From a virus (lineage: Duplodnaviria; Caudoviricetes), in IMG/VR virus record IMGVR_UViG_3300037755_000886, positions 19,820-83,819 of that record: a DNA stretch of 64,000 bases; one strand, 5' to 3'. Both the position numbers and the translations under genes were made by a program. The notes under the pieces were generated by a model, which saw only the letters and a program-made list of their open reading frames with translations, was not told where the DNA came from and searched no databases. This document shows, piece by piece, positions 12,904 through 45,493 of this stretch (position 1 is its first letter; every line of letters starts with the position of its first letter).

Positions 12904-13197
12904 TCACAGGCCGTTGCCGATCAGTCCCCGCAGGCCGTTGAGCGCGGCCCCCAACTCGACGAGGCCATCAGCGCACTCGAACCGCGTCAGCGCCTCGTAG
13001 AACTCGCGGTCGTCGGCGGGCAGCGCATCGGCGACCGCCCACGCTTCCCGGTAGACCGCGACCGCCCGGTCGATGGCCGGCGCCAGGGCCGCCACCTCGG
13101 CGGTGGCCTCGGCCAGACGCGAGCGAAGCTCGGGGCTGAGGTCGGGGGGATCCTTCAACAGGGTCATGGCGCGTCTCCTGGCGCTGGGGGGTGCCAC
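12904..13197 (-). CDS. Hypothetical helical protein
   Basis: Divergent from GntR gene; minus-strand TATAAC at 13217-13212. Confidence 0.5.
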   Translation of the reverse strand: MAPPSARRRAMTLLKDPPDLSPELRSRLAEATAEVAALAPAIDRAVAVYREAWAVADALPADDREFYEALTRFECADGLVELGAALNGLRGLIGNGL

Positions 13198-13248
13198 ATT
13201 CCTGGTTCACGGTTATAGCTCCAACCCTGGACGAATGCCAGAGATTCA

Positions 13249-13283
13249 TTGCAATAACTGCTGTTCTGCGTATAGTGATTGCT
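13249..13283 (+). promoter_or_regulatory. Promoter TTGCAA-16-TATAGT, leaderless-type, for GntR operon
   Basis: -10 ends 7 nt before ATG 13284; GCAATAAC / GTGATTGC inverted pair flanks -10. Confidence 0.6.
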
Positions 13284-14102
13284 ATGACTCCAGTCCTCGC
13301 GGAACACCGCCCGAACTCACCGCATCGACGAGGTGCGATCTACCAGCAGATTGCCGATGACCTGCTCGAACGCATCACAGGCGGCGAGTTCCCGCCAGGG
13401 TCCCGCCTGCCAACCGAGCACCAGCTGATGGACCACTACCGGGCGTCGAGTACGACCGTCCGGGGCGCCGTGAAGGCGATCGCCGCTGCGGGAGTCGTCG
13501 AGACCCGCCACGGCGCCGGCAGTTTCGTGGTCGACCGGCTGCTCCTGTCGATCTACGCCACACACACCGAGGACCTCGACCGACGCGAGGGCATCACCGC
13601 ACAGGACTCGTGGTCAACGGACGTACTCGACGCTGGCCGTGCACCACACCAGCGGTTCGAGTGCCTGAACGTCCCGGCCACCGCCAGCGCGGCCGCGGTC
13701 CTCGGCGTCGAGGTCGACGATGCGCTCGTGAAGCGCCGGTGCTGGCGATCGGTCGACGGCGCGCCCGCGTCCATCGAGACCAGCCTGTTCCCCCGGTGGC
13801 TGGTCGAGGCCCTGCCCGAACTCGCCTCCCCCCACGACATCCGCCAGGGCACGACGTCCTACGTGGCCAAGCACGGGCACCCGATGACCCTCCACCAGGA
13901 TCACCTCTCCGCCCGCCCCTTCACCCGGGAGGAAGCCCTGTTCTTCGAGGCGCCGCCGGGCGTTGTCGGTCTCATCCGAGACCGGGTCTCCTTCGATGAG
14001 CCCGGTGGCCGCGTCCTGCGCTACATGGAGACGGTCTACCGATCGGACATGCACGAGGTCGTCTACGACGTGGCCGGCCGAGGGAATCGCCAGCTCCCAT
14101 GA
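13284..14102 (+). CDS. GntR-family regulator with UTRA domain (HutC/KorSA-like)
   Basis: YQQIADDL...GEFPPGSRLPTE..LM..Y..S.TTVRGAV..I...GVVETRHGAGSFV plus C-terminal UTRA. Confidence 0.92.
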   Translation: MTPVLAEHRPNSPHRRGAIYQQIADDLLERITGGEFPPGSRLPTEHQLMDHYRASSTTVRGAVKAIAAAGVVETRHGAGSFVVDRLLLSIYATHTEDLDRREGITAQDSWSTDVLDAGRAPHQRFECLNVPATASAAAVLGVEVDDALVKRRCWRSVDGAPASIETSLFPRWLVEALPELASPHDIRQGTTSYVAKHGHPMTLHQDHLSARPFTREEALFFEAPPGVVGLIRDRVSFDEPGGRVLRYMETVYRSDMHEVVYDVAGRGNRQLP

Positions 14103-19047: not shown

Positions 19048-19071
19048 CATCCCACGTTCCATCCCACGTTC
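19048..19071. repeat. Integrase arm-type sites, left (CATCCCACGTTC x2)
   Basis: Perfect tandem 12-mers at 19048-19059 and 19060-19071. Confidence 0.8.
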
Positions 19072-19160
19072 TCCGCGCGGAGGCGCGCGAACACGCGCGT
19101 TGCGCCTCGCCCTCGCGCGCTACCGTCTGCGTACGCGCGCTGGTGCGCGGTTGTGCTCTT

Positions 19161-19207
19161 GACTCTTAATCCGCAGGTTCTGGGTTCGAATCCCAGGGGG
19201 CGTACCA
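19161..19207 (+). other. attP core = 3' half of tRNA-Lys(CTT)
   Basis: CTCTTAA anticodon loop, CTGGG-TTCGAAT-CCCAG T-arm, GGGGCGT-A-CCA end; 5' half does not pair properly. Confidence 0.85.
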
Positions 19208-19266
19208 CCAGAAAGCGCAGGTCAAGGGCACTTTCTGAAGGTGGGAACGAACGAGGGACTAGGATC

Positions 19267-19288
19267 CATCCCACGTTCATCCCACATC
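19267..19288. repeat. Integrase arm-type sites, right
   Basis: CATCCCACGTTC at 19267-19278 followed by CATCCCACATC. Confidence 0.8.
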
Positions 19289-19303
19289 GGAAGGCGGGGC
19301 GCC

Positions 19304-20575
19304 ATGGCGGCGAGCAAGAAGAAGGGCCCGCGCGAGAAGGGCTCTGGCTCGAAACGCGAGACACGCAAGAACGTCTGGGAGCTGCGGGTCAACCTGGCGC
19401 CCGACCCCGTTACCGGCAAACGACGCCAGCTCTCCGACACGTTCCGGGGCGGCGAGAAGGCCGCCAACGTCGCCCTGGCCACGCTCATCTCCAAGACCCA
19501 GGCCGACCGGGCGCCGGCCACCGAGGCCACGTTCGGCTACCTGCTCACGACGTGGCTCGAGCGCTGCGAACGGAACCTCGCGGAGTCCACGGTCGTCGGA
19601 TACCGGCGCATCGTCGATGACCTGTGGATGCCGAAGCTCGGCCACGTCCCCCTCGCCAGGCTCGAGTCCCGCCACCTGCAGGCCGTCCTCGACTGGGACC
19701 ACCAGCGCAAGGTCACCCGCGGCAAGAAGGTCACGCCGATCAAGGCCGACACCGTGCTGCGCCACTGGGCCGCCGCCCGCAAGGCGTTGAACGACGCCGT
19801 GCAGATGGGGTGGATCCCGAGCTCGCCCGGCGACCGGGTGCTGCTGCCGTCGAAACGCAAGGGCCGCGACCGGGACCTGTCCAAGGACGAGCTCCTCAAG
19901 ATCCTGCTGTGCGCCGACGAGATGGACCCCGCGCTCGGGCTGATCCTGCGCGCCGCGAGCCTGTCGGGCGCCCGCCGCTCGGAGATGGCCGGCCTGCGCT
20001 GGCCCGACGTCGACTGGGAACGCAACCGGCTGAGCTTCGAGCAGGGCGTGGTCGTGCTGGCCAACCCGAAACGCAAGCCGGGCGACCCGAAGCGGCGGCC
20101 CCGCAAAGTGGTCATCAGCGACACGAAATCCCACCAGTCGCGCCCGGTCACGCTCGACCCCGACTCGATGGAACTGCTGCGTCTCCTGCGCCTGTACGTC
20201 GAGGCCGTCGCCGAGCAGGTCGGCACGGAGCTCCTCCGCGATGCGTTCGTGTTCTCCCGCGAGCCTGACGGCTCCAAGCCGCTGCGTCCCGACTGGCTGT
20301 CGACGGCGTTCAAGAAGGCGGCGAAGAAGGCGGGGTTCCCCGAGGCGCACCTGCATCAGCTGCGACACCTGTCGGCGTCGGTGATGCTGTCGCACGGGAT
20401 CCCGACGGCGGTCGCCTCGAAGCGGCTCGGTCACGCCGAGGAGACGACGACCATCCAGTTCTACTCCCGGGCGATCCAGTCGGACGAGGCCGCCGCCGAG
20501 GTGTTGGCCTCGGTGCTGTTCCCGCCGGCGAAGGCGCCGACCGTGCTCGAGGTGCCGGAAGCCGAAGCCAGCTGA
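19304..20575 (+). CDS. int: Tyrosine integrase
   Basis: Arm-binding N-terminus; catalytic SGARRSE (R), K, HQLRH, LGH, FY. Confidence 0.96.
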   Translation: MAASKKKGPREKGSGSKRETRKNVWELRVNLAPDPVTGKRRQLSDTFRGGEKAANVALATLISKTQADRAPATEATFGYLLTTWLERCERNLAESTVVGYRRIVDDLWMPKLGHVPLARLESRHLQAVLDWDHQRKVTRGKKVTPIKADTVLRHWAAARKALNDAVQMGWIPSSPGDRVLLPSKRKGRDRDLSKDELLKILLCADEMDPALGLILRAASLSGARRSEMAGLRWPDVDWERNRLSFEQGVVVLANPKRKPGDPKRRPRKVVISDTKSHQSRPVTLDPDSMELLRLLRLYVEAVAEQVGTELLRDAFVFSREPDGSKPLRPDWLSTAFKKAAKKAGFPEAHLHQLRHLSASVMLSHGIPTAVASKRLGHAEETTTIQFYSRAIQSDEAAAEVLASVLFPPAKAPTVLEVPEAEAS

Positions 20576-28771: not shown

Positions 28772-29119
28772 ATGGAGTCTTCACTCACAGCGGCAGGGTT
28801 GGCGCCGCCGACCACTAACCTCCCGGCCATGACCCCCAAGATCTATGAGGGCCCCAGCGCCTATGGACCGTCCAACGACAGCGCCCGCTCCGAGGCCGCT
28901 GAACGCGGCCTGACCCCGATCGGTGTCAACGGCATCGCCGCCTGGTTCGGCGTGGAACCCAACACCGTGAGCCGGTCATGGATCGCCGAGCGCGACGCCA
29001 AGAAGGATCCGGCGAAGAAGTTCCCGGAGCCGACGTGGCCCGAGCTCAACCTCTACGCCACCCGCGTCATCGAGGAGTGGGGCATCGCCACGGGTCGCCT
29101 GGCGGAAGGTGGGCGATGA
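28772..29119 (+). CDS. HTH DNA-binding protein (AlpA-like repressor candidate)
   Basis: IGVNGIAAWFGVEPNTVSRSW...FPEP...LY...IEEW. Confidence 0.7.
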   Translation: MESSLTAAGLAPPTTNLPAMTPKIYEGPSAYGPSNDSARSEAAERGLTPIGVNGIAAWFGVEPNTVSRSWIAERDAKKDPAKKFPEPTWPELNLYATRVIEEWGIATGRLAEGGR

Positions 29120-29640
29120 GTGCGGCCACGGACGCGGATGACTACACGGCCGTGTACCGCTGTTTCGACCGCGATGGACGTCTGGTTTACGTCGGCGCCT
29201 CATGTCTCGGCCTCGTCCGCTTCCACCAGCACCAGGCCGAGAAGGGATGGTGGCCCTGCGTCGCCCGGGTCGAGGTCGAGCACTACGCCAACCGTGCCGA
29301 GGCGCTGGCTGCGGAGCGGGCCGCCATCGAGGCCGAGGCTCCGCGCTTCAACATCCACCACGGCCTCAGGCGGAGCGTGACGGTACGTCGGCGGCAGGAA
29401 TGGGCTTCCGATCAGCGGGTCGGAATCCCGGACAGCATCGCCAAGGGACTGCATCTCCTTCGGCGTCGTCAGCACGCGATCGCCAGGGCCAGACGGGACA
29501 TCGTGCTCGCCGCCTGGAGCGAGGGCGTGTCGATCGAACGGATCGCCGATCTGGCCGGCCTGCACCGTGTCGACGTCGAGCGAGTGATCTGGTTCGCCAG
29601 GCACAGCAAGGACGGGATGGCCGCACTGCCCTACAGGTAA
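29116..29640 (+). CDS. GIY-YIG nuclease-like protein with C-terminal HTH
   Basis: AVYRCFD..GRLVYVGAS...RF.QH...AERAAI...P.FN; GVSIERIADLAGLHRVDVER. Confidence 0.8.
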   Translation: MSAATDADDYTAVYRCFDRDGRLVYVGASCLGLVRFHQHQAEKGWWPCVARVEVEHYANRAEALAAERAAIEAEAPRFNIHHGLRRSVTVRRRQEWASDQRVGIPDSIAKGLHLLRRRQHAIARARRDIVLAAWSEGVSIERIADLAGLHRVDVERVIWFARHSKDGMAALPYR

Positions 29641-32083: not shown

Positions 32084-32455
32084 TCAGGCGGTCAGGCGTG
32101 ACCGCATCGGCTCGACGCTCAGCCCCTTGTGGGGCGTGTGCCGGTCGGGGCTGCAGGCAGCGAACGGGCCGAAGGTCGACTGCATGGCGGCAAGGTGCCG
32201 GTCGAGGTGGTCGAGCATCCAGGACGAGTAGGCGAGCGCGTCGCCGTGGGTCGTGACCTGCAGCCACGAGGCGTACAGGACCCGCATCCGGGTGACGACC
32301 TCGGGGTGGCGGTCCCACTGCTGGCACCACCGGAGCGTGTTGCTGGCCCGGCGCTCGAGCACGTCGACGAACCAGAGCTGCACCCAGGCGGCCAGCTCGT
32401 CCATGGTCGGCTCGGCGGTAGCGGGCGCGGATGGGTGGAGGTTGGTGACGGTCAC
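32084..32455 (-). CDS. DUF4913-like protein
   Basis: WV..WF..V.ER...WCQQWDRHPEVV.RM..LY.SW...W..DHLD.HL...GPFAAC...H. Confidence 0.75.
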   Translation of the reverse strand: MTVTNLHPSAPATAEPTMDELAAWVQLWFVDVLERRASNTLRWCQQWDRHPEVVTRMRVLYASWLQVTTHGDALAYSSWMLDHLDRHLAAMQSTFGPFAACSPDRHTPHKGLSVEPMRSRLTA

Positions 32456-33867
32456 GGCTTCCTCCTGAGCGTCTTGCCGACCACCTGGGCCGGAGCGGGC
32501 GCAGGCTTCGACGTCCGGGGCTGCGGGGCCTGGTTGGCGGCGGCGGCCAGGCCGGGCGTGGCCGCGATCGCGGCCTGCATCGCTCCCCGGTGGGGCTGAT
32601 GTGCGTACGACAGGCACGTGACCAACAGATTCGTGGTGCCCCGCGGTGCGCCGGTGGTGGAGTGGAGCGCAGCGGACGCGCTGGTCCGGGCATCGATGCC
32701 CCAACCGTCGGCGATCGCCTTCATCGAGTGGCCCTGCGAGACCAGCAAGGCCTGCGCCTTGGCCAGCGACTCGCCGGTGACACCCGCCGCCGCCAGACGC
32801 TCGGGCGACGCGACACCCTCACCCAACCTGGTCATCAGTTCCGCCTCGGCAGCCCCACCGAGCGGCTCGGGATCGGGGACCGCCTGGGGCTCATCGAAGA
32901 CCGGCGCGGCCGCCATCATGGCGTCCGTCGGGGCGGCGCCGGCCGCCCGATGGCTGTCGTAGTGGGCCATTGCCGCCGGGTGCGTCGCCCGCAGGTTTTC
33001 CTCGGTGCGCGCCATCGCCTCGGCCGCGTACGCATCGGTTTCAGTGTGCGGCAGCGCGGACGCCCACACCCGCACGTTCGCTACCGGGTCCGATTGGCCC
33101 AGAGGATCCGTGGTCGACTGCGAGGACGCCGGGCGGCCCGCGGCCGCGCCCAAACCCGGCACGGCCCGACCGGCGGTGGCCTGCGGCTCGGGCGTCGACG
33201 GGGCCAACGTGACGTCCAACTCGGCGGCACAGGACGGCGTCGACGTCGCGGTCAGCTCCGGGTCCCGGCCGAGGATCGCCGTCAACTCCCCGACCGTGAT
33301 CACGTCGGCGTCCTTGATGGCCATGTGGGTCCCGTAGTCGAGGACCCCGCACGCCTCGACGACGGAGACCCGGTAGATCTCCCAGTCGCCGGGCTCGGTG
33401 CCCTTGACGTACCCGGCCTCGCCGGGGAGGGGCAGGCGCTCGGCGACGAACGAGTGGCCCCGAGCGTTGCGCCAGGTGGCGGAGGTCTCGGTGAGGCTGA
33501 GGCTGTCGGGGGCGGGGCGGAGGTGGCTCGGTGCCGCCGTGTTGGTGTCAGTCCGCGTGCGCGGTGTCGTGGCATCGGGCGCAAGCTCGACCGCGGACGG
33601 CATGGCTGCCGCAGCCTCGACGATCCCGTCCCGCCACCTGCCCATCGCCTCAAAGTCCAGGCGGTCACCCACCCTGACATCGACGATCCGCCGCTGGAGC
33701 TTCGCGATCGTGTTCTGCCGGTAGTCGGTGGACACGTCGATCTGACTGGCGAGCTGACCGAGCTCGGCCTTGCGGAGCCCCAACCCGGCCACGTACGCAG
33801 CGGCCTCCTCGCGGGACTGCATCGCGTCGAGACGCCCACGCACCTCGACCGGATCGAAAGCGCTCAC
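32452..33867 (-). CDS. Multidomain hypothetical protein, plasmid/ICE-like
   Basis: Coupled to DUF4913; segment LRATHP.AMAHYD..R..G..P.DAM..AAP.F resembles actinobacterial plasmid proteins (recall only). Confidence 0.55.
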   Translation of the reverse strand: MSAFDPVEVRGRLDAMQSREEAAAYVAGLGLRKAELGQLASQIDVSTDYRQNTIAKLQRRIVDVRVGDRLDFEAMGRWRDGIVEAAAAMPSAVELAPDATTPRTRTDTNTAAPSHLRPAPDSLSLTETSATWRNARGHSFVAERLPLPGEAGYVKGTEPGDWEIYRVSVVEACGVLDYGTHMAIKDADVITVGELTAILGRDPELTATSTPSCAAELDVTLAPSTPEPQATAGRAVPGLGAAAGRPASSQSTTDPLGQSDPVANVRVWASALPHTETDAYAAEAMARTEENLRATHPAAMAHYDSHRAAGAAPTDAMMAAAPVFDEPQAVPDPEPLGGAAEAELMTRLGEGVASPERLAAAGVTGESLAKAQALLVSQGHSMKAIADGWGIDARTSASAALHSTTGAPRGTTNLLVTCLSYAHQPHRGAMQAAIAATPGLAAAANQAPQPRTSKPAPAPAQVVGKTLRRKP

Positions 33868-34172
33868 GACGAACCGCCGATCCCGACGTCGGCCAACCAG
33901 GCCAACACCATCGGGCGAATCGCCGGGTCGGCGAGCGTGTCACGCACCACGCGGCCCTCACAGCGCGGGTCCGCCGAGGACTGCCACTCGTCGAGCGCCT
34001 CCTCGATGAGCACGTCGAGCGGGTGCGGGGCCGGCAGCTCCGGCTTGGCGTCGACCACCACGACGTCGACGTCACCGGCGGCGATCGCGTCGACGACATC
34101 GGGGGGCAGACGACGGTAGGCCTTGCTAGAGCGGGGGTGGGAGTGGGTGAGTGGGGCGTTGATGTCGATCAT
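33864..34172 (-). CDS. Hypothetical protein
   Basis: GGAGG-like RBS, GTGA overlap with next gene. Confidence 0.55.
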   Translation of the reverse strand: MIDINAPLTHSHPRSSKAYRRLPPDVVDAIAAGDVDVVVVDAKPELPAPHPLDVLIEEALDEWQSSADPRCEGRVVRDTLADPAIRPMVLAWLADVGIGGSS

Positions 34173-34284
34173 GGGGGCCTCCGGGGGCGGTGACGGGGAG
34201 TGACGGTCAGGTCGGTGGGCGGGGGAAACGGTGGATGGTTGGGATCGGGGGGTTTCGGGGGATCGGGGGGTGGGGGTCCCATCC

Positions 34285-34403
34285 GATGTGAACTATGTGA
34301 AATGTGCAGGTCAGGGCTGGTTTCTGCGATGTGAAGTGGCATGTGAGGCGCGGTGTGAACTCACATCACCTCACAGCGCGACTTCACATCGCCGGTTCAC
34401 GTC
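34285..34403. repeat. Array of ~10 (G/T/C)ATGTGA(A/G)-like 8-mers, direct then inverted (clt-like)
   Basis: Direct copies at 34285, 34294, 34301, 34328, 34340, 34352; inverted at 34360, 34370, 34383, 34396; 12-bp perfect IR 34326-37/34381-92. Confidence 0.85.
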
Positions 34404-36469
34404 CGGTCGACGACGTCACGGCGACGCACCGCGCGACGGTTGCCGTGCTGACGGGACGGCTCGATCGGGACCTTGGCGTCCCGGAGCTGCTCAACGAGCG
34501 CCTCAACGTCGACACCGAGGCGGACCGTGAGGTCATCGACCGGGACCACGTTCTCGTCGCCCATCGCATCGAGCACCCGGGCCAGCAGGTCGCCGGTCTC
34601 CTTGGCCAGCTGCACCTTCGGTGGTGCCGGCGCCCGTCGGACCAGATCGACGCCGAGGGCCCCGATGCGCTCGTGGTCCTGCTGGCTGAACAGGTAGGTC
34701 TTGACCTGCTGGATGCCCTTGTGTGCCTGGAAGCCCGACGGGTTGACGAGGCAAACGCCCTGGTAGTCGTCGGGCCAGCGGCTCGTGTCGTAGCCGTCAC
34801 CCACCCGGCCGGTGCCGAGGACCAGGTTCGAGTCGGCGGCGTTCATCGTGCGGAACGCCACCCGGATCCCGAGCGATGCCTGTGCGCCACCGAGGGTGTC
34901 GGAGTCGAAGCGCTGGCCGGCGATGATCGGGACGATGCCGCCGGAACGCACCATCTGTGACAGGCCCATGACCCGCTCCTGGATCAGGGACCCGTGCTTG
35001 CGGTGGGCGACCAGGAAGTTGAGCTCGTCGATGATGACCGGAACCAGGGGCAGCCCGAACTCGGGGTTGCCGGTCACGGCCGGGGTGATCTGGCCGTGCG
35101 GCATGAGTCTGGGGTCTTCGCGGCGCAGGCTCGAGATCAGCTTGGCCCGGTCCTCGCGCATCCCGTAGACGACGTCCAGCATCTCCAGGCACCGCTTGGC
35201 GCCGTCGTCACCGCACCCCTCGCCGGACCACAGGACCGCTTTCTCGTACATCGAGAACCCGCCCTCGCCCTTGCCGTCGTGGTACAGCGGCGTGGCCCGC
35301 GGGTCCAGGACCCCGGCGGCGAGAAGAGCCAGGACCAGCGTGGACTTCCCGTAGCCGGGAGCCGAGCAGATCCATGCACCGGAGGTCCCCGGGAGGACCA
35401 GGCCGTAGAGGTCCCCGAGGACCGTGGTCCCGACCGGGACCGGGTCCCACATGCTGAAGGTCCCGAGGTCCGCGAGTGGGGACCGCACGGGGTCCGCGGT
35501 CATGGGGTCCTCGTTGAAGATCGTGAGGAGGACCTGCCCGGCGTGTCCGGCCCTGGACAGGAGAAGGCGCTGCTCAGCGACCCGAAACGCCGAGGCCAAC
35601 TCCTCCCGCTTGGCGAGGACCTTGGAGGCCGTGGTCCCCTCGGGGAGGTCGATGAGGCCCTCCCAGCCCTCGGGTCCCCGGTCCCGGAGATACATGCCGC
35701 CAACGGTCATGGTGCCGGGGAAACTGGCGGCCGTGAAGCTGGCGACGACGCGGTCCGAGCGGACCAGGGTGCGGGCCGGGTCCTCCGATCCTGCGGTCCT
35801 CACGGGACCCGCGTCCGGGTCCGGGTCCCCGTTGGGCCGGCCGTTGTGGATGAGGACCGCGAGGACCCCGGCGGCGAGGACCGCACGGAGGACCGGGGAG
35901 ACCTCGGGGGACACGATCAGGAGGACCGCGGCGAGGACCGCGGCGAGGACCGCGCAGGTCTTCCACGTTCGCTCGTTGCGGGTCCGGTGGCGCTCCTTGC
36001 GCTCGTACTGCCGGGCCCGCCCGTTCTTGTTCTCGGCGGCGTGGCGCTCCATCGCCAGGGTCTCGGCGTCGATCGCGTAGCGGACCAGGTGAAGGGAGAG
36101 CCGCCACCCGCCCCGAACCGCCCACCCGACTGGGCGGACCGCGTACCCGCGCTTGATCCCGTGGTAGGCGGCCTGGTTGACCCCGTACCGCCCGGCGTGC
36201 GTCACGTTGCGCCGGACCCCGCTCGCGGTCTTCGCCCACGGCGGCAGGATGGGGAGCATCGCCGGGGCGACCCGGCCCGAGTCCTCGGCGTTGACATCCG
36301 GCTCGGCGACCACCGACACAGGCGGAGGGGGCAGGGTGTCGAGCTCGACCGTGTCCTCCGGATACGGGTCCCGCGGGTACGCCTGCCCCAGATAGATCTC
36401 CTGGTCGTCACCGCGTTTGAGGAGGTTCAGGGCGCGGCGGCCGTTCTGGTGGTCCGTGGTCGCGGTCAC
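34397..36469 (-). CDS. traB: FtsK/SpoIIIE-family conjugative DNA translocase (TraB/TraSA-like), 690 aa
   Basis: N-terminal TM pair; Walker A SAPGYGKST; Walker B VIIDELNFL; RSGGIVPIIAGQR; RVAFRTMNAADSNLVLG; short C-terminal wHTH-like domain; GTGA-coupled start at 36469. Confidence 0.88.
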   Translation of the reverse strand: MTATTDHQNGRRALNLLKRGDDQEIYLGQAYPRDPYPEDTVELDTLPPPPVSVVAEPDVNAEDSGRVAPAMLPILPPWAKTASGVRRNVTHAGRYGVNQAAYHGIKRGYAVRPVGWAVRGGWRLSLHLVRYAIDAETLAMERHAAENKNGRARQYERKERHRTRNERTWKTCAVLAAVLAAVLLIVSPEVSPVLRAVLAAGVLAVLIHNGRPNGDPDPDAGPVRTAGSEDPARTLVRSDRVVASFTAASFPGTMTVGGMYLRDRGPEGWEGLIDLPEGTTASKVLAKREELASAFRVAEQRLLLSRAGHAGQVLLTIFNEDPMTADPVRSPLADLGTFSMWDPVPVGTTVLGDLYGLVLPGTSGAWICSAPGYGKSTLVLALLAAGVLDPRATPLYHDGKGEGGFSMYEKAVLWSGEGCGDDGAKRCLEMLDVVYGMREDRAKLISSLRREDPRLMPHGQITPAVTGNPEFGLPLVPVIIDELNFLVAHRKHGSLIQERVMGLSQMVRSGGIVPIIAGQRFDSDTLGGAQASLGIRVAFRTMNAADSNLVLGTGRVGDGYDTSRWPDDYQGVCLVNPSGFQAHKGIQQVKTYLFSQQDHERIGALGVDLVRRAPAPPKVQLAKETGDLLARVLDAMGDENVVPVDDLTVRLGVDVEALVEQLRDAKVPIEPSRQHGNRRAVRRRDVVDRT

Positions 36470-36612
36470 GGCGCGCTCACCGCGGTGATGCAGCAGCTGG
36501 CGCCGGGCCGGACGATCGGCGCCGGCGGGTTGGTGATCAGCAACACGAGGCCGATGGCCCACGTGATCAGCCACACGGTGGCCAGCAGGAGCGGGGGCGG
36601 ACGGTTACGCAT
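36466..36612 (-). CDS. Small membrane protein (48 aa)
   Basis: TM LLLATVWLITWAIGLVLLI; overlaps both neighbours. Confidence 0.55.
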   Translation of the reverse strand: MRNRPPPLLLATVWLITWAIGLVLLITNPPAPIVRPGASCCITAVSAP

Positions 36613-37558
36613 CGGGGGTCTCCTCCATGCGGGCACGGGCGAGGGGCAGGATCTGGAGGCGGACCCGGTCGTTGTTGACCCGGTGCCCCTTCTTGCGCAG
36701 GGCCTCGGCCAAGGGCTTCCAGCTGGACAGCACGCCTGGATCGGCGGCGGCCAGTCGGCAGGCGACTGCGGCAAGCTCGTCGTCGGTCAGCGCCGCCTTG
36801 GTGGCCGGCCGGCGCGCCGGGGGCCGTTTGGCCGGGGCCGGCCGGGTGACCCGCGGGCGTTCAGGAGCCTCCGTCACCTCGACCGGTGCCGGGCCGGTGG
36901 GCTCCTCCTCCTGCTCGTCGACGTCGATCCCGGCGGCCGCGGCGATGATCCGGTACAGCTCCCGCTTGCGCGCCGGCGCGGCAGCGAGCGATCCGTGCCG
37001 GTCGGTCAACCGGGCCAGGAACCGGCGGCGCTCCAAGTCGAGGGCCTCGGCGTACGAGGTGATGCCCCACACCCGCATGCGGCGCCACAGGCGGAGCGTC
37101 GGCCACGGCGCGCACACCCAGCGGGCCAGCGGGATCCGGTCGGCGACCTCAACGAGGCGGGCCGTCATCGTGGCCTTGGCGGCCTCAACAGCGGCGGCGA
37201 ACAGGGCGGGCAGGGCGGCGTGGCCGAGGATCCCGAACAGCCCGGTCTTGCCGGCGACGTTCAACGCGATCGTGACGCCGATGAGCGCCCACGCGAACCA
37301 GCGGAGCCAGGCGACCTTGCGCTCCCCGCGGGTGAGAGCGAAGTCGAGGCCGGTGAAGAAGGCGATGGCGCCGTCAACGCTCGCGGGCAGCAGCCACGGC
37401 CGGTCCCATCCGTCGGCCGCGGCGACGGCGGCGACGTTCGTGAACGAGCCGATGGCGCCGAACGCTCCGAGGGCGGCGACACCCGTCAGCATGACGGGGA
37501 GCAGCAGGTCCCGGGAGACGCCCGAGGGGCGGACGCGGTCGAGAAGCGCGGCGGTCAT
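36605..37558 (-). CDS. DUF2637 / Spd-like membrane protein of actinomycete conjugative elements
   Basis: Four TMs, WLLPASVDG, then DRIPLARW..APWPT.RLWRRMR.W.ITSY. Confidence 0.8.
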   Translation of the reverse strand: MTAALLDRVRPSGVSRDLLLPVMLTGVAALGAFGAIGSFTNVAAVAAADGWDRPWLLPASVDGAIAFFTGLDFALTRGERKVAWLRWFAWALIGVTIALNVAGKTGLFGILGHAALPALFAAAVEAAKATMTARLVEVADRIPLARWVCAPWPTLRLWRRMRVWGITSYAEALDLERRRFLARLTDRHGSLAAAPARKRELYRIIAAAAGIDVDEQEEEPTGPAPVEVTEAPERPRVTRPAPAKRPPARRPATKAALTDDELAAVACRLAAADPGVLSSWKPLAEALRKKGHRVNNDRVRLQILPLARARMEETPDA

Positions 37559-38142
37559 CGGAACACCCCGGCGCGTCGCTGCCCGTTGGTGCGCTGCTGA
37601 TGGCACGACCGACCGCCACCCCCGCAGAGGGTGCGCAGGTTGGCGAGGTGATGGATGCAACCCGGCTCCCGATGGCGGCCGAGTGCAGCGTCGATGTGGT
37701 CGACCTCGAGATGCTCGGCGCTCCCGCACTGGGTGCACCGGTAGCCGTCCATGCGGCGACGGGCTGAGCGGGCCCGGTCGAACACATGGTTCTCGTTGGC
37801 CTCGTCAGCGCACCGTGGGCCGCAGAAGTTGTAGCGGTTCCGGGGGATCAGCCCGTTGCACCACCGGCACGCCCACGGCCCACCCTGCCAAGCGGACAGG
37901 ACGCACGCCCGGTAGATGTCGTCGCCCTGGAGCACCGGCGGACGGGGACGGGACTGCTCCCGGTGCAACCACTTCCCGAGCACGACGTAGGCCAGCCCGG
38001 CAAGGGCCGCGTCGATGGCGCGCCGCTCGATGTGGTGCGCCCACCGGTGCATGGCCCGGCGCAGGGATCGGCCGGCGACCCGCAGGACGAGGAACCCGAG
38101 CGCGACGAACACGACGAAGAGGAGGGTGAGGTCGGCGGTCAC
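37555..38142 (-). CDS. Membrane-anchored HNH endonuclease
   Basis: Two N-terminal TMs; CRWC..FCGPRC; CTQCG..LEVDHI...NLRTLC..CH. Confidence 0.8.
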   Translation of the reverse strand: MTADLTLLFVVFVALGFLVLRVAGRSLRRAMHRWAHHIERRAIDAALAGLAYVVLGKWLHREQSRPRPPVLQGDDIYRACVLSAWQGGPWACRWCNGLIPRNRYNFCGPRCADEANENHVFDRARSARRRMDGYRCTQCGSAEHLEVDHIDAALGRHREPGCIHHLANLRTLCGGGGRSCHQQRTNGQRRAGVFR

Positions 38143-39218
38143 GGCCGGTCCCCGTTGCCGTTGCTGCCGTTGCCCGCGTGGGCGGGCGCCGGGGGTGGCA
38201 CGTAGCCGGCCCAGTCGTTGCGGGCGTGCTGGTCGAGGGCGAGTCCGGCCAGGAACTCGCGGGTGTCCGCATGGACCTCACCGGCTCGGGTGCGCCACGC
38301 CTCGGCTTCCGGGCTCGGGCTAGCGTTCGGCGCGGGCGGGCCCGGCTCGGCGAACGGACGCGGCACGTACCCGGCGGGGACCAGTGGCTCGGCGAGTTCG
38401 TCGTGCGGGTAGTCGGCGGGACCCGCTTTGCGCTCGGCCCGCTTCGCCTTCCGGTCGGCCTTGCGCTGCGCCCGGGTCTTCTTCGGCGGCCGGGTCTGGC
38501 GCATCAACCACCGGTCGATGCGGCCGGGGCTCGACAGCTCCTCGTCGGGCACGCCGGCCTCGCGCTCGGCAGCCCACTGCCGCCCCCACGCGTCGCGGCG
38601 CCACATGCCGAAGCGCCGTACCTGGCGGGCGTCGCGGTGCCCTGCCCGCCAGTCGGATGCGACCCCGCGTGCCGCGCCCCGGATGCCCCGGCGCTTCACA
38701 CGGCGGACCGTGAGGCGGCACAGGCTCATCACGGCCAGGAACATGCAGCCGATCGACGAGACGATGGCGCCGATGTGGAAGCCGTCGGCGAGCAGCCCCG
38801 CGGTGCGGGCCGGCCGGCCGGTAGGCGTCAACGTGAGCAGCGGCTGCGGCCCGTCCTTCGACGGGATGAACCCGCCGCTGCCGTCGGATGTCGGCATGCA
38901 CTTGGGCGGCCAGTCCTCACATCGAATGCCCATTGACCGCTCAACCTGCGGTGTGACCGCGATCGTGTCGGCCACCGTCGCCATGGCGGCGTACAGCGGC
39001 CAGCAGATCAGTGCCGTGAGGACCGGCGAGAAGACCAGGAACCGGAGTCCCCACCGGACACCCCGGGTCGCGACCCGCGCGCCGACGAGCGCGTGGCTGA
39101 GGTCGAGGTGCAGGGGTGCGCCCTGCACTACCGCGTGTGCCGCGCTCGCACCATTTGCGGCGGCCTGGCTGGCGGTCTGGCGCAGCACCGTCCCAGTCGA
39201 CTGAGGCGACAGGCCCAT
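38139..39218 (-). CDS. Membrane protein in transfer operon
   Basis: Two TM regions plus basic and Pro-rich tail; coupled. Confidence 0.65.
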   Translation of the reverse strand: MGLSPQSTGTVLRQTASQAAANGASAAHAVVQGAPLHLDLSHALVGARVATRGVRWGLRFLVFSPVLTALICWPLYAAMATVADTIAVTPQVERSMGIRCEDWPPKCMPTSDGSGGFIPSKDGPQPLLTLTPTGRPARTAGLLADGFHIGAIVSSIGCMFLAVMSLCRLTVRRVKRRGIRGAARGVASDWRAGHRDARQVRRFGMWRRDAWGRQWAAEREAGVPDEELSSPGRIDRWLMRQTRPPKKTRAQRKADRKAKRAERKAGPADYPHDELAEPLVPAGYVPRPFAEPGPPAPNASPSPEAEAWRTRAGEVHADTREFLAGLALDQHARNDWAGYVPPPAPAHAGNGSNGNGDRP

Positions 39219-39221
39219 CGG

Positions 39222-39527
39222 TCAGGCCCCGATCCCGAGGAGCCCGAGGTGGTAGCGGAGGATCACGCCGGCGGGCACGGACGTGACCGACGGTCCGTCG
39301 ACTCCGCCGCCCTTGGCGCCACCGATCTTCTGGGCGATGGTCGTCAGAATGTCGATGCCGAGGGCGAACGCCGCGTCGTTTACCTGGGCCAGGACGTTGT
39401 GGATCATCCCAACCCCGCCCAGCGACACCCCGAACATGGCGCCCAAGAGCATGCCGTCCCACTGGGCGCCCCGGCGCGCCTTGGCGTAGACGAGCAGGAC
39501 CAAGAAGAACAGCGGTGGGGTGAGCAC
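39222..39527 (-). CDS. Small multi-TM protein, first gene of transfer operon
   Basis: Hydrophobic helices; GGAGG upstream. Confidence 0.65.
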   Translation of the reverse strand: MLTPPLFFLVLLVYAKARRGAQWDGMLLGAMFGVSLGGVGMIHNVLAQVNDAAFALGIDILTTIAQKIGGAKGGGVDGPSVTSVPAGVILRYHLGLLGIGA

Positions 39528-39572
39528 GGGGCCTCCGGGAGCGAGGGGGGTGCGGCATCAGACGTGGCCATA

Positions 39573-39629
39573 CATGCAGTGTCAACACTACATAGCTGCT
39601 ACCGTACCATGCAGTGGACTCACTACATA
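39573..39629. promoter_or_regulatory. Twin operators CATGCAGTG-N4-CACTACATA overlapping divergent promoters
   Basis: Copies at 39573-39594 and 39608-39629, each a near palindrome; TTGACA on minus 39585-39580; TACCAT on plus 39605. Confidence 0.8.
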
Positions 39630-39681
39630 CGGGCCCACGAGATCCGTTAGCGGGTGACTACCGTCAGGAGGTCAGCGGGCC

Positions 39682-39996
39682 GTGACAGCGAGGGGCCGGA
39701 TACGGTCCTGTGCCGTGGCCCCCACGCGACCGCTCCTCAGTGACCTGATCAGTGCGCGGGAAGTGGCCCAACTACTTGGACTCTCGGGACCAACGACGGT
39801 CAGCGTTTACCGGACCGCCAGGCGACCCGACGGCACGCTCCGCTACCCCGACTTCCCCCCTCCCGTGCTCCCCCGCCACGACGACCCGACGAGCGGTCAG
39901 TACTGGTGGCGGCCAGACATCCTGAAATGGCGCGCCAAGCACCCAGCGATCGGGCGCCACCGATCCGACGGCGACGATGTCACACCCCCCTCGTAG
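39682..39996 (+). CDS. AlpA-like HTH regulator divergent from transfer operon (Kor-like)
   Basis: LISAREVAQLLGLSGPTTVSVY...DFPPP...W.RPDILKW. Confidence 0.75.
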   Translation: MTARGRIRSCAVAPTRPLLSDLISAREVAQLLGLSGPTTVSVYRTARRPDGTLRYPDFPPPVLPRHDDPTSGQYWWRPDILKWRAKHPAIGRHRSDGDDVTPPS

Positions 39997-40062: not shown

Positions 40063-40100
40063 CCGCCGGCCGTGACCCCCGTGAGGGTCGCGGCCGGCGG
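40063..40100 (-). terminator. Intrinsic terminator of late/lysis transcript
   Basis: 16-bp stem CCGCCGGCCGTGACCC / GGGTCGCGGCCGGCGG followed by ACTTT on minus strand. Confidence 0.65.
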
Positions 40101-40128: not shown

Positions 40129-40335
40129 TCAGGTCGTGTAGGTCACCCAGAAGTGCCAGGCCAACCACACGATGAACGCCGCGGTGATGGCGGCGGGGAT
40201 GAACCGGTGGACGGTCTGGGTCAACGTGGGGTAGCGGTCGTGGCGGCGGCGCAGGGCCACGGCCTCGAGGGCGAGGAACGCCAGGAACCAGGCGGGCCAC
40301 GCCAAGGTGAACAGGACAGACCAGGTGTCGTTCAC
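40129..40335 (-). CDS. Small membrane protein (lysis cassette)
   Basis: Two TMs. Confidence 0.65.
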   Translation of the reverse strand: MNDTWSVLFTLAWPAWFLAFLALEAVALRRRHDRYPTLTQTVHRFIPAAITAAFIVWLAWHFWVTYTT

Positions 40336-40342
40336 GGCCGGG

Positions 40343-40627
40343 TCAGGGCCGCCCGTTGGGCCGTTCGGGTACGGCGACGTCGACCCGATTGGCGAGGTCG
40401 TTCACGGCGCCAGCAGCCGAGCGCGACTCGGTGATGGCGTCCCGGACGGTCGCAGTCGGGATCACGTTGTAGCGGGTGAGGATCCCGGCGAGCAGCGGCA
40501 GGCCGACCAGGATCGCGGACCAGGCGTTGAAGCCTCCGCCGGCGTCCTGTCCGGCGCGGATGATCTCGGTGACTGCGGCGAGCACAGCAGCGGCGAGCGC
40601 GGCGATCACTGCGGGTTCCTTCTTCAT
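40343..40627 (-). CDS. Holin
   Basis: KKEPAVIAALAAAVL; two TMs; downstream of endolysin. Confidence 0.7.
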   Translation of the reverse strand: MKKEPAVIAALAAAVLAAVTEIIRAGQDAGGGFNAWSAILVGLPLLAGILTRYNVIPTATVRDAITESRSAAGAVNDLANRVDVAVPERPNGRP

Positions 40628-40671
40628 GGGGTGTGTCCTCCTCGGACGGTTTGGTCGGTGGGAGAACGGGG

Positions 40672-41295
40672 TCAGCGGGCGAGCGCGAACGTGGCGACCG
40701 CGACGAGGACACCGACCATGACAACGGCGAGGCCCATCACGGCGAGCATGTTGGCGTTCGACGCCGACTTTCCCGCGTGCGCGCCGCCGGCCGTGTCGAT
40801 GCGATGCCGGACGTCGGCCAGCTGGGATTGCAGGTCGGCGATCTGGTTGACGAGACCGGCGATGAGCGCGGACACTTCGCCCTTCAACGCGAACGTGGCC
40901 TGCTGGTCGGTCAGGGTCTGGCGGAACTCGTTGACCGCGGCCAAGCGCTCGGTCAGGGCCTTCTCGGCCTTCAGCGTCGCTTCCTTGGCCGCGGCGAAAG
41001 CGGCGTCCGTAGCGGTCTGGGCGGCCGCCAACGCCTTCTCCCTGGCCTGCTCCTCGCCCTCGAAGCGCTGCTGGTAGCGCTGGTCCTTCTCGGTCGCGAG
41101 GTCACGTTGACGGGCGTCGTCCGCGGCCCGCAACGCGAGGTGGCGTTGGTCGAGGGCTTCGATGGCCGTGTTGATCGCGGCGAGAGCGACCAGTTCAGTT
41201 TGGGCCTGGGCGGCCATCTGGAGCGTGAAATGCTCGAAGACGGTCCCCAACGTCCACTCGCCGGATATGGCTGGCATCGGGGCAACCGCCGTCAC
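40672..41295 (-). CDS. Coiled-coil protein with C-terminal TM (lysis-associated)
   Basis: Helical repeats; C-terminal MLAVMGLAVVMVGVLVAVATF. Confidence 0.65.
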   Translation of the reverse strand: MTAVAPMPAISGEWTLGTVFEHFTLQMAAQAQTELVALAAINTAIEALDQRHLALRAADDARQRDLATEKDQRYQQRFEGEEQAREKALAAAQTATDAAFAAAKEATLKAEKALTERLAAVNEFRQTLTDQQATFALKGEVSALIAGLVNQIADLQSQLADVRHRIDTAGGAHAGKSASNANMLAVMGLAVVMVGVLVAVATFALAR

Positions 41296-44707: not shown

Positions 44708-45493
44708 TCACTCCCAGAGATGCGCCCACGAGCGACGATGCCGGATGCTGCTGATCTGGGTCTGCGCGACTCCGTACTGCTGAGCGATATCGGCCTGCGT
44801 GCGACGGGGCACCCGCTGCAGCTCCACGACGATCTGACGGACATCGTCCTCGGTGAGCTTCGCCCGGCCGTTTCGTGATCCGGCCCGGCCCTTGCCCTTG
44901 ACGGTCGTCGCGGGTGCCAGATCGATGGAGCGACCAACCGACTCCTTGAACGAGAACCGCTCCGGCAGCTCCTCCCCAACCCGGCCAGGAAGGTTGAGAT
45001 GGGAGAACTCGCCGTACTCGGCACGGGCCGCCGCGTCGTAGACGCGGGCGGCATCCTCCTCCGACTCGTAGTACCCCAGGAACCGACTCGCCCCGTCTTC
45101 GCGAATGTGCGCCTGCCACAGCCCGGTCTTGGCATCCAGTGACACGCCCTTAAACGATGACGTGCCACCGAGTCCCGGCTTGTTGGCGATGTTCTGAACC
45201 CGCCGGGCGAGACGCAAATTGCCGCGCCGGCAGTCGAGCTTGTTCTGATTGTGATGGTCGACCTCGGCGCCCTTCGGGGTCTCTTCGGTCAGGAGCCCCA
45301 TGCGTTGGGCTACCCAGCGGTGCAGGTAGCCGCGCTTCGGATTACCGGCGTACTGCCCGACTCGCCCCTTACCGCCGCGCATGCACCATGAGATGTGCCG
45401 TGCGTCCTCATAGTCCTCGGGATCAAGGAGGATCGTCACGACGGTTCCATTGCGTTTATGGATTGTCAGGGTAGGTGTGGTCTCAAGGAGCAT
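44708..45493 (-). CDS. HNH homing endonuclease with AP2 and C-terminal HTH domains
   Basis: EVDHHNQNKLDCRRGNLR; SSFKGVS...WQAHI...LGYY..EEDAARVYD.AA; GSRNGRAKLTEDDVRQI; visibly lower GC. Confidence 0.9.
   Translation of the reverse strand: MLLETTPTLTIHKRNGTVVTILLDPEDYEDARHISWCMRGGKGRVGQYAGNPKRGYLHRWVAQRMGLLTEETPKGAEVDHHNQNKLDCRRGNLRLARRVQNIANKPGLGGTSSFKGVSLDAKTGLWQAHIREDGASRFLGYYESEEDAARVYDAAARAEYGEFSHLNLPGRVGEELPERFSFKESVGRSIDLAPATTVKGKGRAGSRNGRAKLTEDDVRQIVVELQRVPRRTQADIAQQYGVAQTQISSIRHRRSWAHLWE

Follow-up and report, generated by a model that had tools for sequence, protein, structure and literature searches.

Known TraB Systems and the Phage Locus

Plasmid pSVH1 encodes a translocase, TraB, that binds a clt site and pumps unprocessed double-stranded DNA (dsDNA), in complex with membrane proteins encoded upstream of its gene (PMC4447253). 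The Spd genes upstream of pSVH1 traB serve intramycelial spreading, and plasmid TraB also performs the primary transfer from cell to cell (PMC4447253); the clt sites of pWTY27, pJV1, and pIJ101 are composed of short direct and inverted repeats adjoining tra (PMC3583192). SpdB2-like proteins of phages phiC31 and VWB have been proposed as aids to the spread of phage DNA (PMC4447253). In the Streptomyces plasmid-phage pZL12/phiZL12, to which pSLE1 is related, virion genes and a functional tra locus reside on one element, and the main tra gene and two genes next to it are required for transfer (PMC3583192); for pZL12 (Zhong et al., 2010) we draw on papers that cite it (PMC3583192; PMC4487206; PMC5431353), so that likeness to it is by description, not by sequence.

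Here we describe a TraB-type module in a tailed-phage genome (IMG/VR record IMGVR_UViG_3300037755_000886). The analyzed stretch of 64,000 nt, hereafter the window, corresponds to bases 19820-83819 of one 83,819-bp contig classed as a virus record, and all coordinates are window positions (position 1 is the first letter of the stretch); genes were mapped by calling based on third-position GC (GC3). The module consists of a leftward operon of membrane protein genes leading into traB, a repeat array immediately after traB, and a divergent gene for a small protein upstream (Table 1). We have high confidence in its identity and architecture, which are well supported, and the best explanation of the record is a temperate siphovirus with a built-in, lineage-conserved DNA-transfer module, as opposed to a separate element. 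The published precedents, as far as the citing papers describe them, comprise a plasmid-phage (pZL12) with a tested tra locus and the printed proposal that SpdB2-like proteins spread phage DNA; the present phage departs from these in that it integrates, probably has a host among the Acidimicrobiia, uses control of a type other than GntR, and encodes a distinct set of membrane partners.

The module resembles the TraR-Spd-TraB-clt regions of pSVH1 and pSG5 in having a divergent regulator with repeated operators and a coupled membrane-protein operon that ends in a membrane-anchored, FtsK-like TraB of ~700 aa, and it shares with both plasmids, and with TraA/clt of pWTY27, a short-repeat array right after the tra stop codon (PMC4447253; PMC3583192). 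It differs from pSVH1 and pSG5 in that the candidate regulator is a small winged-helix-like protein rather than a GntR protein, its membrane proteins show no sequence relationship to SpdB3, Spd79, or SpdB2, and the carrier is an 83.8-kb integrating phage, probably of Acidimicrobiia, versus a 12-kb plasmid. As described for pZL12, virion genes and a tra locus are found on one element; unlike pZL12, which persists as a plasmid and carries ParAB (PMC4487206), the phage has an integrase and a tRNA-derived attP, and a scan of ~60 ORFs of the record found no ParA or ParB.

TraB Translocase and the Adjoining Repeat Array

The traB open reading frame (ORF) is open back to 36574, and the start at 36469 is backed by database relatives and by a 4-nt overlap. 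The plasmid matches of its product include TraB of pSVH1 (28% identity over 444 aa, E 1e-25) and of pSG5, and the protein also matches an FtsK/SpoIIIE-like PHROG (6e-17). The AlphaFold (AF2) model (predicted local distance difference test, pLDDT, 70.5) aligns with the dsDNA-bound FtsK motor over ~420 columns (Foldseek E 1e-12), and Walker A K375, in the P-loop SAPGYGKS, and Walker B D481 and E482 are invariant in 12 homologs. Two hydrophobic transmembrane (TM) helices (residues 172-210), modeled as helices at pLDDT ~80, provide an N-terminal membrane anchor, and residues 624-689 are modeled as helix-strand-helix-helix-strand-strand (pLDDT 86-92), a winged-helix-like order; the C-terminus has a DprA_WH match at E 6e-4, below the cut-off. 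In a quick maximum-likelihood (ML) tree of motor domains with an outgroup of four Acidimicrobiia FtsK domains and one EccC domain, a small sampling with some long branches, the phage proteins group with six plasmid Tra proteins (SH-aLRT 100), apart from FtsK and EccC, as the preliminary description of this DNA had anticipated in naming the ATPase a TraB. The protein combines four attributes of the TraB family: an FtsK/SpoIIIE-type motor with Walker A and B motifs, a membrane anchor, repeats in cis, and grouping with plasmid Tra proteins.

Twelve relatives of TraB at 41-61% identity were found in a large protein collection, and five related contigs were examined (L002, L003, L007, L008, and L009, from independent JGI, ENA, and Logan assemblies). 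All five have a repeat array at the same place as in the window and with the same layout: a repeat block, a block in the opposite orientation, a spacer with a conserved TGACCTGC, and then one or two repeats. The clt-like array that had been noticed after traB holds seven of the 12 YTCACAY sites of the window, all inside 34286-34389 (104 bp); in the pSVH1 control, five of seven GACCCGGA octamers (the known TRS) lie within 100 bp after the traB stop codon. Unlike that of pSVH1, the phage array has copies in both orientations.

The repeat unit is TCACAT in the window, L003, and L009, TCACCTC in L002, CCTTCACC in L008, and GTACAGGGCAAC in L007. The C-terminus of TraB is nearly the same throughout the TCACAT group, altered in L008, and unrelated in L007, such that six genomes present four motifs in one array layout, and the motifs track the TraB C-terminus. 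This covariation of repeat motif and C-terminal winged helix, the best evidence that we have, supports the array as the probable cognate clt-like recognition site of TraB. The six genomes with their four pairings of motif and winged helix offer a natural specificity series for site reading by TraB. All of the clt-like arrays contain a GAAA(A/C)...TGACCTGC element (34300-34325 in the window), including those whose repeat unit differs along with the C-terminus of TraB.

The traB gene itself contains a cluster of GGWCC pentamers, with about tenfold enrichment at 35220-36220. In all six traB genes of the clade, nt 300-1200 hold 26-37 such sites, a number not attained by any of 1000 synonymous-codon shuffles, which gave 11-15. 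The enrichment was not found in the traB genes of pSVH1, the Pseudonocardia element pPaSha2, or the phage genome L059 (both described below). The positions of the sites mostly differ among genomes while their density is kept, and this, together with the excess over synonymous-codon shuffles, points to selection on the DNA itself.

Membrane Proteins and Control Region

All of the genes listed for 32084-39996 in the preliminary description are present at the starts given there, and their junctions mostly overlap by 4 or 8 nt (38139-38142, 37555-37558, 36605-36612, 36466-36469, 33864-33867, and 32452-32455). The first two proteins of the operon, of 101 and 359 aa, have no family match in Pfam or other family libraries; counterparts of the latter (29-46% identical) occupy the same place in L002, L003, L007, L008, and L009. 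The TM-HNH protein matches PF01844 (HNH) at E 0.018, below the cut-off, with the whole profile covered and a Cys/His motif readable in the sequence, and it is kept in all five relatives (37-53% identity). The 48-aa protein has a gene of 50-56 aa at its place in L002, L003, L007, and L008.

The DUF2637 protein (36-63% identical in the relatives) occupies the position that SpdB2 has in pSVH1, upstream of traB. An earlier likening of the membrane proteins to Spd did not extend to their sequences: homology of the DUF2637 protein to pSVH1 SpdB2 was rejected (BLASTP E 0.15), SpdB2 of pSVH1 and of pSG5 gave no match to DUF2637 in a Pfam search, and what the proteins share is just the position upstream of traB and a polytopic topology. 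Relatives of the DUF2637 protein are encoded by the Streptomyces phages VWB and Gilgamesh, and Gilgamesh also has an FtsK-like gene; unlike in the window, the two Gilgamesh genes are far apart (near 8 kb and 76 kb). Pfam and other family searches of the module ORFs detected no relaxase, VirB4, or coupling protein. The module does not fit conjugation of single-stranded DNA by type IV secretion, its sole association with such systems being the DUF4913 gene.

The preliminary description had also pointed to a divergent gene for a DNA-binding protein and to twin operators, and both are present. The operator-like pair lies in a spacer of 155 bp that separates the divergent gene from the first gene of the module; the 22-nt sequence has two matches in the window and none in 100 shuffles, and at this place the related contigs carry repeat or dyad pairs of their own that differ from those of the window. 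Counterparts of the 104-aa protein (33-53% identity) are encoded, likewise divergently, in each of the five related contigs. It has no Pfam match, and its best Foldseek rows are winged helices of the MerR/excisionase type (RacA, RdfS, TraN, and BldC), none of them significant (E >= 0.3). On the other side of this gene, a GC-rich hairpin (40063-40100) that may act as a terminator or insulator separates it from the lysis operon. The twin repeats in the spacer, the conserved divergent protein, and the separating hairpin indicate that the module probably has a control region of its own, which differs from the plasmids' control through GntR.

A GntR/UTRA regulator is encoded elsewhere in the window (13191-14102, + strand), ~20 kb from the module; its identity is 33% with pSVH1 TraR (E 7e-25) and 29% with a GntR protein encoded beside DUF2637-TraB in Nonomuraea. 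The chromosome of Nonomuraea gerenzanensis carries a GntR, DUF2637, and TraB trio of integrative-element or plasmid type (L006, 16567-21473).

Table 1. Positions of the features of the phage window that are discussed in the text.
Feature	Position	Strand	Characteristics
attP core	19161-19207	+	Last 47 nt of tRNA-Lys(CTT), with arm-type repeats 19050-19075 and 19264-19290
Tyrosine integrase	19241-20575	+	PF00589 at 1e-18 plus SAM-like N domain
DUF4913 protein	32084-32455	-	~123 aa from GTG at 32455; Pfam 1e-21; specific to this genome
471-aa Ala/Pro-rich protein	32452-33867	-	No TM helix, no P-loop; specific to this genome
102-aa acidic protein	33864-34172	-	No family match; specific to this genome
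clt-like array	34284-34393		~9 copies of (C/T)TCACA(T/C) in both orientations, a few bases after traB stop
TraB-family dsDNA translocase	34397-36469	-	690 aa; N-terminal part, then 2 TM helices, FtsK-type motor, and predicted winged helix at C-terminus
GGWCC pentamer cluster	35220-36220		40 sites versus <=8 in any other 1-kb bin of the window
48-aa single-TM protein	36466-36612	-	TM residues 8-26; overlaps both neighbors
DUF2637 polytopic membrane protein	36605-37558	-	317 aa; Pfam 4e-17; PHROG 29003 at 1e-24
TM-HNH protein	37555-38142	-	195 aa; N-terminal TM helix (residues 5-23) and Cys-rich HNH-like domain
359-aa membrane protein	38139-39218	-	C-terminal half charged, Pro-rich; TM-like segments near residues 54-88 and 142-167
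101-aa hydrophobic protein	39222-39527	-	First module gene; GC3 0.92
Twin operator-like 22-nt repeats	39573-39594 and 39608-39629		35 bp apart, each with an internal dyad
Divergent small protein	39682-39996	+	104 aa; candidate module repressor; AF2 model pLDDT 71
16-bp GC-rich inverted repeat	40063-40100		94% complementary, 6-nt loop; separates lysis operon end and regulator gene

Conservation and Distribution of the Module

The gene order is common to all five related contigs: a tail protein, endolysin, and holin-like genes are followed by small divergent genes, another two to three small genes, a membrane protein of 300-350 aa, a TM-HNH protein of ~200 aa, DUF2637, a ~50-aa gene, and TraB, and then by the array, small genes, and the integrase. 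Three of the relatives have a tyrosine integrase and two have a serine integrase, and their endolysins belong to different families; the same order despite these differences suggests that the module was kept while its neighbors were exchanged. Conservation is confined to the part from the regulator to the array (34284-39996), so that the preliminary description of the module as self-contained was overstated. The genes for the 102-aa, 471-aa, and DUF4913 proteins beyond the array have no counterpart in the five contigs, and this left edge appears to be an addition specific to the genome.

The synteny that had been proposed as a test was thus recovered in five metagenome contigs, and it had no match among phage database records: neither a tblastn search with TraB nor a blastn search with the whole module revealed an operon of TraB, clt, and membrane proteins in 50,697 phage records, a set from which the record of the window itself was possibly excluded, and FtsK-like or DUF2637 genes turned up there scattered and alone. 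A related-locus search of IMG/VR and GTDB genomes, with the single TraB protein and with an alignment, yielded no relative. In a profile search, the wider TraB family comprised 372 clusters at E < 1e-30, with a large gap after the phage clade. The next nearest member after this gap (P0015) is likewise encoded between an integrase and tail and endolysin genes, and L059 is a phage genome with a more distant TraB between integrase and lysis genes.

Another example is pPaSha2 of Pseudonocardia alni (CP052773.1; L039), a 41.9-kb circular element deposited as a plasmid that encodes terminase, portal, protease, capsid, holin, integrase, and Bet. Its DUF2637-FtsK/TraB gene pair is located between holin and integrase, and its TraB is 30% identical to that of the window; unlike the window phage, it is smaller, belongs to the class Actinomycetes, and has a three-gene module convergent with the lysis genes. 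From this gene content, pPaSha2 is a complete phage genome, and records filed as plasmids can accordingly be complete phages with a TraB module. Taking together the clade of the window, P0015, and pPaSha2, at least three TraB lineages are phage-borne.

Phage Genome, Attachment Site, and Host

The record is a complete tailed-phage genome. Genes for the large terminase, the portal, the major capsid protein, the tape measure, and the endolysin occupy 41292-63750 (- strand), and genes for small membrane proteins come next after the endolysin gene (40129-41295, - strand). The left part of the record encodes a DUF3987 helicase-primase, located left of the window, as well as an exonuclease, a RuvC-like resolvase, a DUF2303 protein, and an intein-containing methylase.

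The claim that the module is carried by a phage with an integrase and attP holds. The tyrosine integrase, ~14 kb from the module, is 75% identical in L002 and 46-48% identical in L008 and L009, and ARAGORN calls a tRNA-Lys(CTT) adjoining it. Compared with real tRNA genes, the tRNA sequence is limited to its last 47 nt (anticodon loop to CCA end), and the 5' half is unrelated. Repeats of the CATCCCACGTTC type flank this attP core on either side, the 83.8-kb record contains no second copy of the core, and the attP layout of L002 (L002 18617-18850) is the same. These three features identify the site as the attP of the free form rather than a prophage junction. L017 and L020 resemble related integration junctions.

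A 32-nt piece of the attP core matched 17 species-representative genomes, 15 of which bear the names of Acidimicrobiia lineages (Iamiaceae, Microthrixaceae, Acidimicrobiales, Poriferisodalaceae, and Rhabdothermincola) and the other two of which have generic actinobacterial names. The att site alone therefore indicates that the host is probably an uncultured member of the Acidimicrobiia.

Proposed Function and Alternative Explanations

We propose that the small winged-helix-like protein encoded at 39682-39996 would bind the twin operators and keep the leftward operon off. Upon derepression, five translationally coupled membrane proteins, including the TM-HNH and DUF2637 proteins, would be produced together with TraB, which would be anchored by its two TM helices and presumably assemble into FtsK-like hexamers. 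The C-terminal winged helix of TraB would recognize the TCACAT-type repeats just after its own gene, allowing TraB to load onto the circular phage genome at the array and to pump dsDNA across the membrane or septum into a neighboring cell, and in the recipient the phage integrase would insert the genome at tRNA-Lys(CTT). The phage would then spread as virions and also by cell contact. For virion-independent transfer of the phage genome, we judge the prospects to be evenly balanced. The more far-reaching proposal is that an integrating temperate phage lineage of the Acidimicrobiia, a class from which TraB-type conjugation has been reported missing, is truly dual-mode, spreading as virions and, by means of TraB and the array, as naked dsDNA through cell contact, with the GGWCC cluster as a second cis element; this we put forward as speculative, and on balance we doubt it. 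Should the module work in this manner, temperate phages of actinobacteria would gain a route of spread that requires neither receptor nor lysis, and one that reaches beyond Streptomyces-like hyphae to the Acidimicrobiia, a class commonly found in soil, water, and activated sludge; estimates of phage host range, immunity, and gene flow would change.

Several observations weigh against transfer between cells. Hidden Markov model searches recovered two of the three families that had been named for the module, DUF2637 and DUF4913, and TraB fell below the threshold of the third, Pfam FtsK_SpoIIIE (PF01580); the first residue of its P-loop is Ser rather than Gly or Ala. The regulator is not of the GntR type known from the plasmids, and the module membrane proteins are not sequence homologs of the experimentally tested Spd proteins. 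Ten Acidimicrobiia genomes with the matching tRNA had no TraB relative, just chromosomal FtsK and an EccC-like gene. We know of no Streptomyces-like mycelium in the Acidimicrobiia, and with a host that is probably from this class, the hyphal setting assumed in the preliminary description may not carry over directly. Acidimicrobiia have also been reported to lack the integrative and conjugative elements of actinomycetes (AICEs) (PMC3218068). Finally, the module adjoins the lysis cassette, a position that would also suit an envelope or exclusion function.

One alternative is that the module is a device of lysogenic conversion or exclusion, in which a membrane complex, the pump, and the HNH nuclease would block, expel, or cut incoming DNA, or alter the envelope. 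PHROGs classifies phage FtsK/SpoIIIE-like proteins as morons, and a TM-anchored HNH-like protein and a putative repressor-controlled promoter of its own beside the lysis genes would suit such a function. However, a clt-placed array in cis that covaries with the DNA-binding domain of the pump points to the phage genome as the substrate, and the nearest characterized relatives are transfer proteins; we consider exclusion or an envelope function quite improbable. Somewhat greater weight, the most among the alternatives, falls on a pump that works within the clone and moves excised or replicating phage DNA through the division septa or cross-walls that part the sister cells of a filament. It would serve FtsK/SpoIIIE-like segregation, or spreading by itself, and would bring the phage into every compartment but not into unrelated recipients. 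TraB is related to FtsK and has a C-terminal domain that is probably sequence-specific, and Microthrixaceae, a family that includes filamentous bacteria, are among those with the matching tRNA. There is precedent in the intramycelial role of the pSVH1 Spd genes and in the DNA spread proposed for SpdB2-like phage proteins (PMC4447253). The same plasmid TraB also carries out primary intercellular transfer (PMC4447253), however, and the sequence offers nothing to separate the two uses; restriction to the clone is in our view unlikely.

Least weight of all is given to the possibility that the module is an inserted fragment of an AICE or plasmid, or that the contig is an assembly chimera, either of which is very improbable. 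The DUF4913 gene and its two neighbors, genome-specific and plasmid-associated, suggest that some plasmid-derived DNA was added at the left edge. For the core, a chimera was rejected because five independent assemblies share its junctions, and GC (~70%) is even across the module region and its borders. An AICE inserted in a phage was likewise rejected for the core: no direct repeats bounding the module were found, and among the window and record ORFs scanned, there was no AICE-type or plasmid-type rep and no integrase other than that at 19241-20575, in agreement with what had been noted at the outset. AICEs such as pSAM2, SLP1, and pMEA300 are similar in having a tyrosine integrase at a tRNA 3' end and a single Tra/TraB translocase (PMC2440964; PMC3218068). 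Unlike the phage, they are att-bounded elements of 9-24 kb that combine Int, Rep (RepSA, RepAM, or Prim-Pol genes), and Tra and are without virion genes; here the tRNA core is single copy, and the integrase serves a phage with virion genes. Thus, of the findings that the preliminary description had set out as fatal to its proposal, neither a chimera, nor a separate AICE integrase or rep with its own att repeats, nor an ATPase outside TraB was seen for the core. The built-in phage module remains the best explanation.

Genome-Specific Genes and Other Features

Of the genes that follow the array, that for the 471-aa protein has no match in Pfam, NCBIfam, or Atlas. DUF4913 is present on 344 actinobacterial plasmids, where it comes directly after the gene for a type IV coupling protein.

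The record further contains a DNA methylase gene (N6_N4_Mtase; 504-2096, - strand) split by an intein-like insert with Hint and LAGLIDADG domains. Two endonuclease genes are also present: a free-standing HNH gene (44708-45493, - strand) amid those for tail and lysis, and a GIY-YIG-like one (28978-29640, + strand) in the + strand block to the left of the module.

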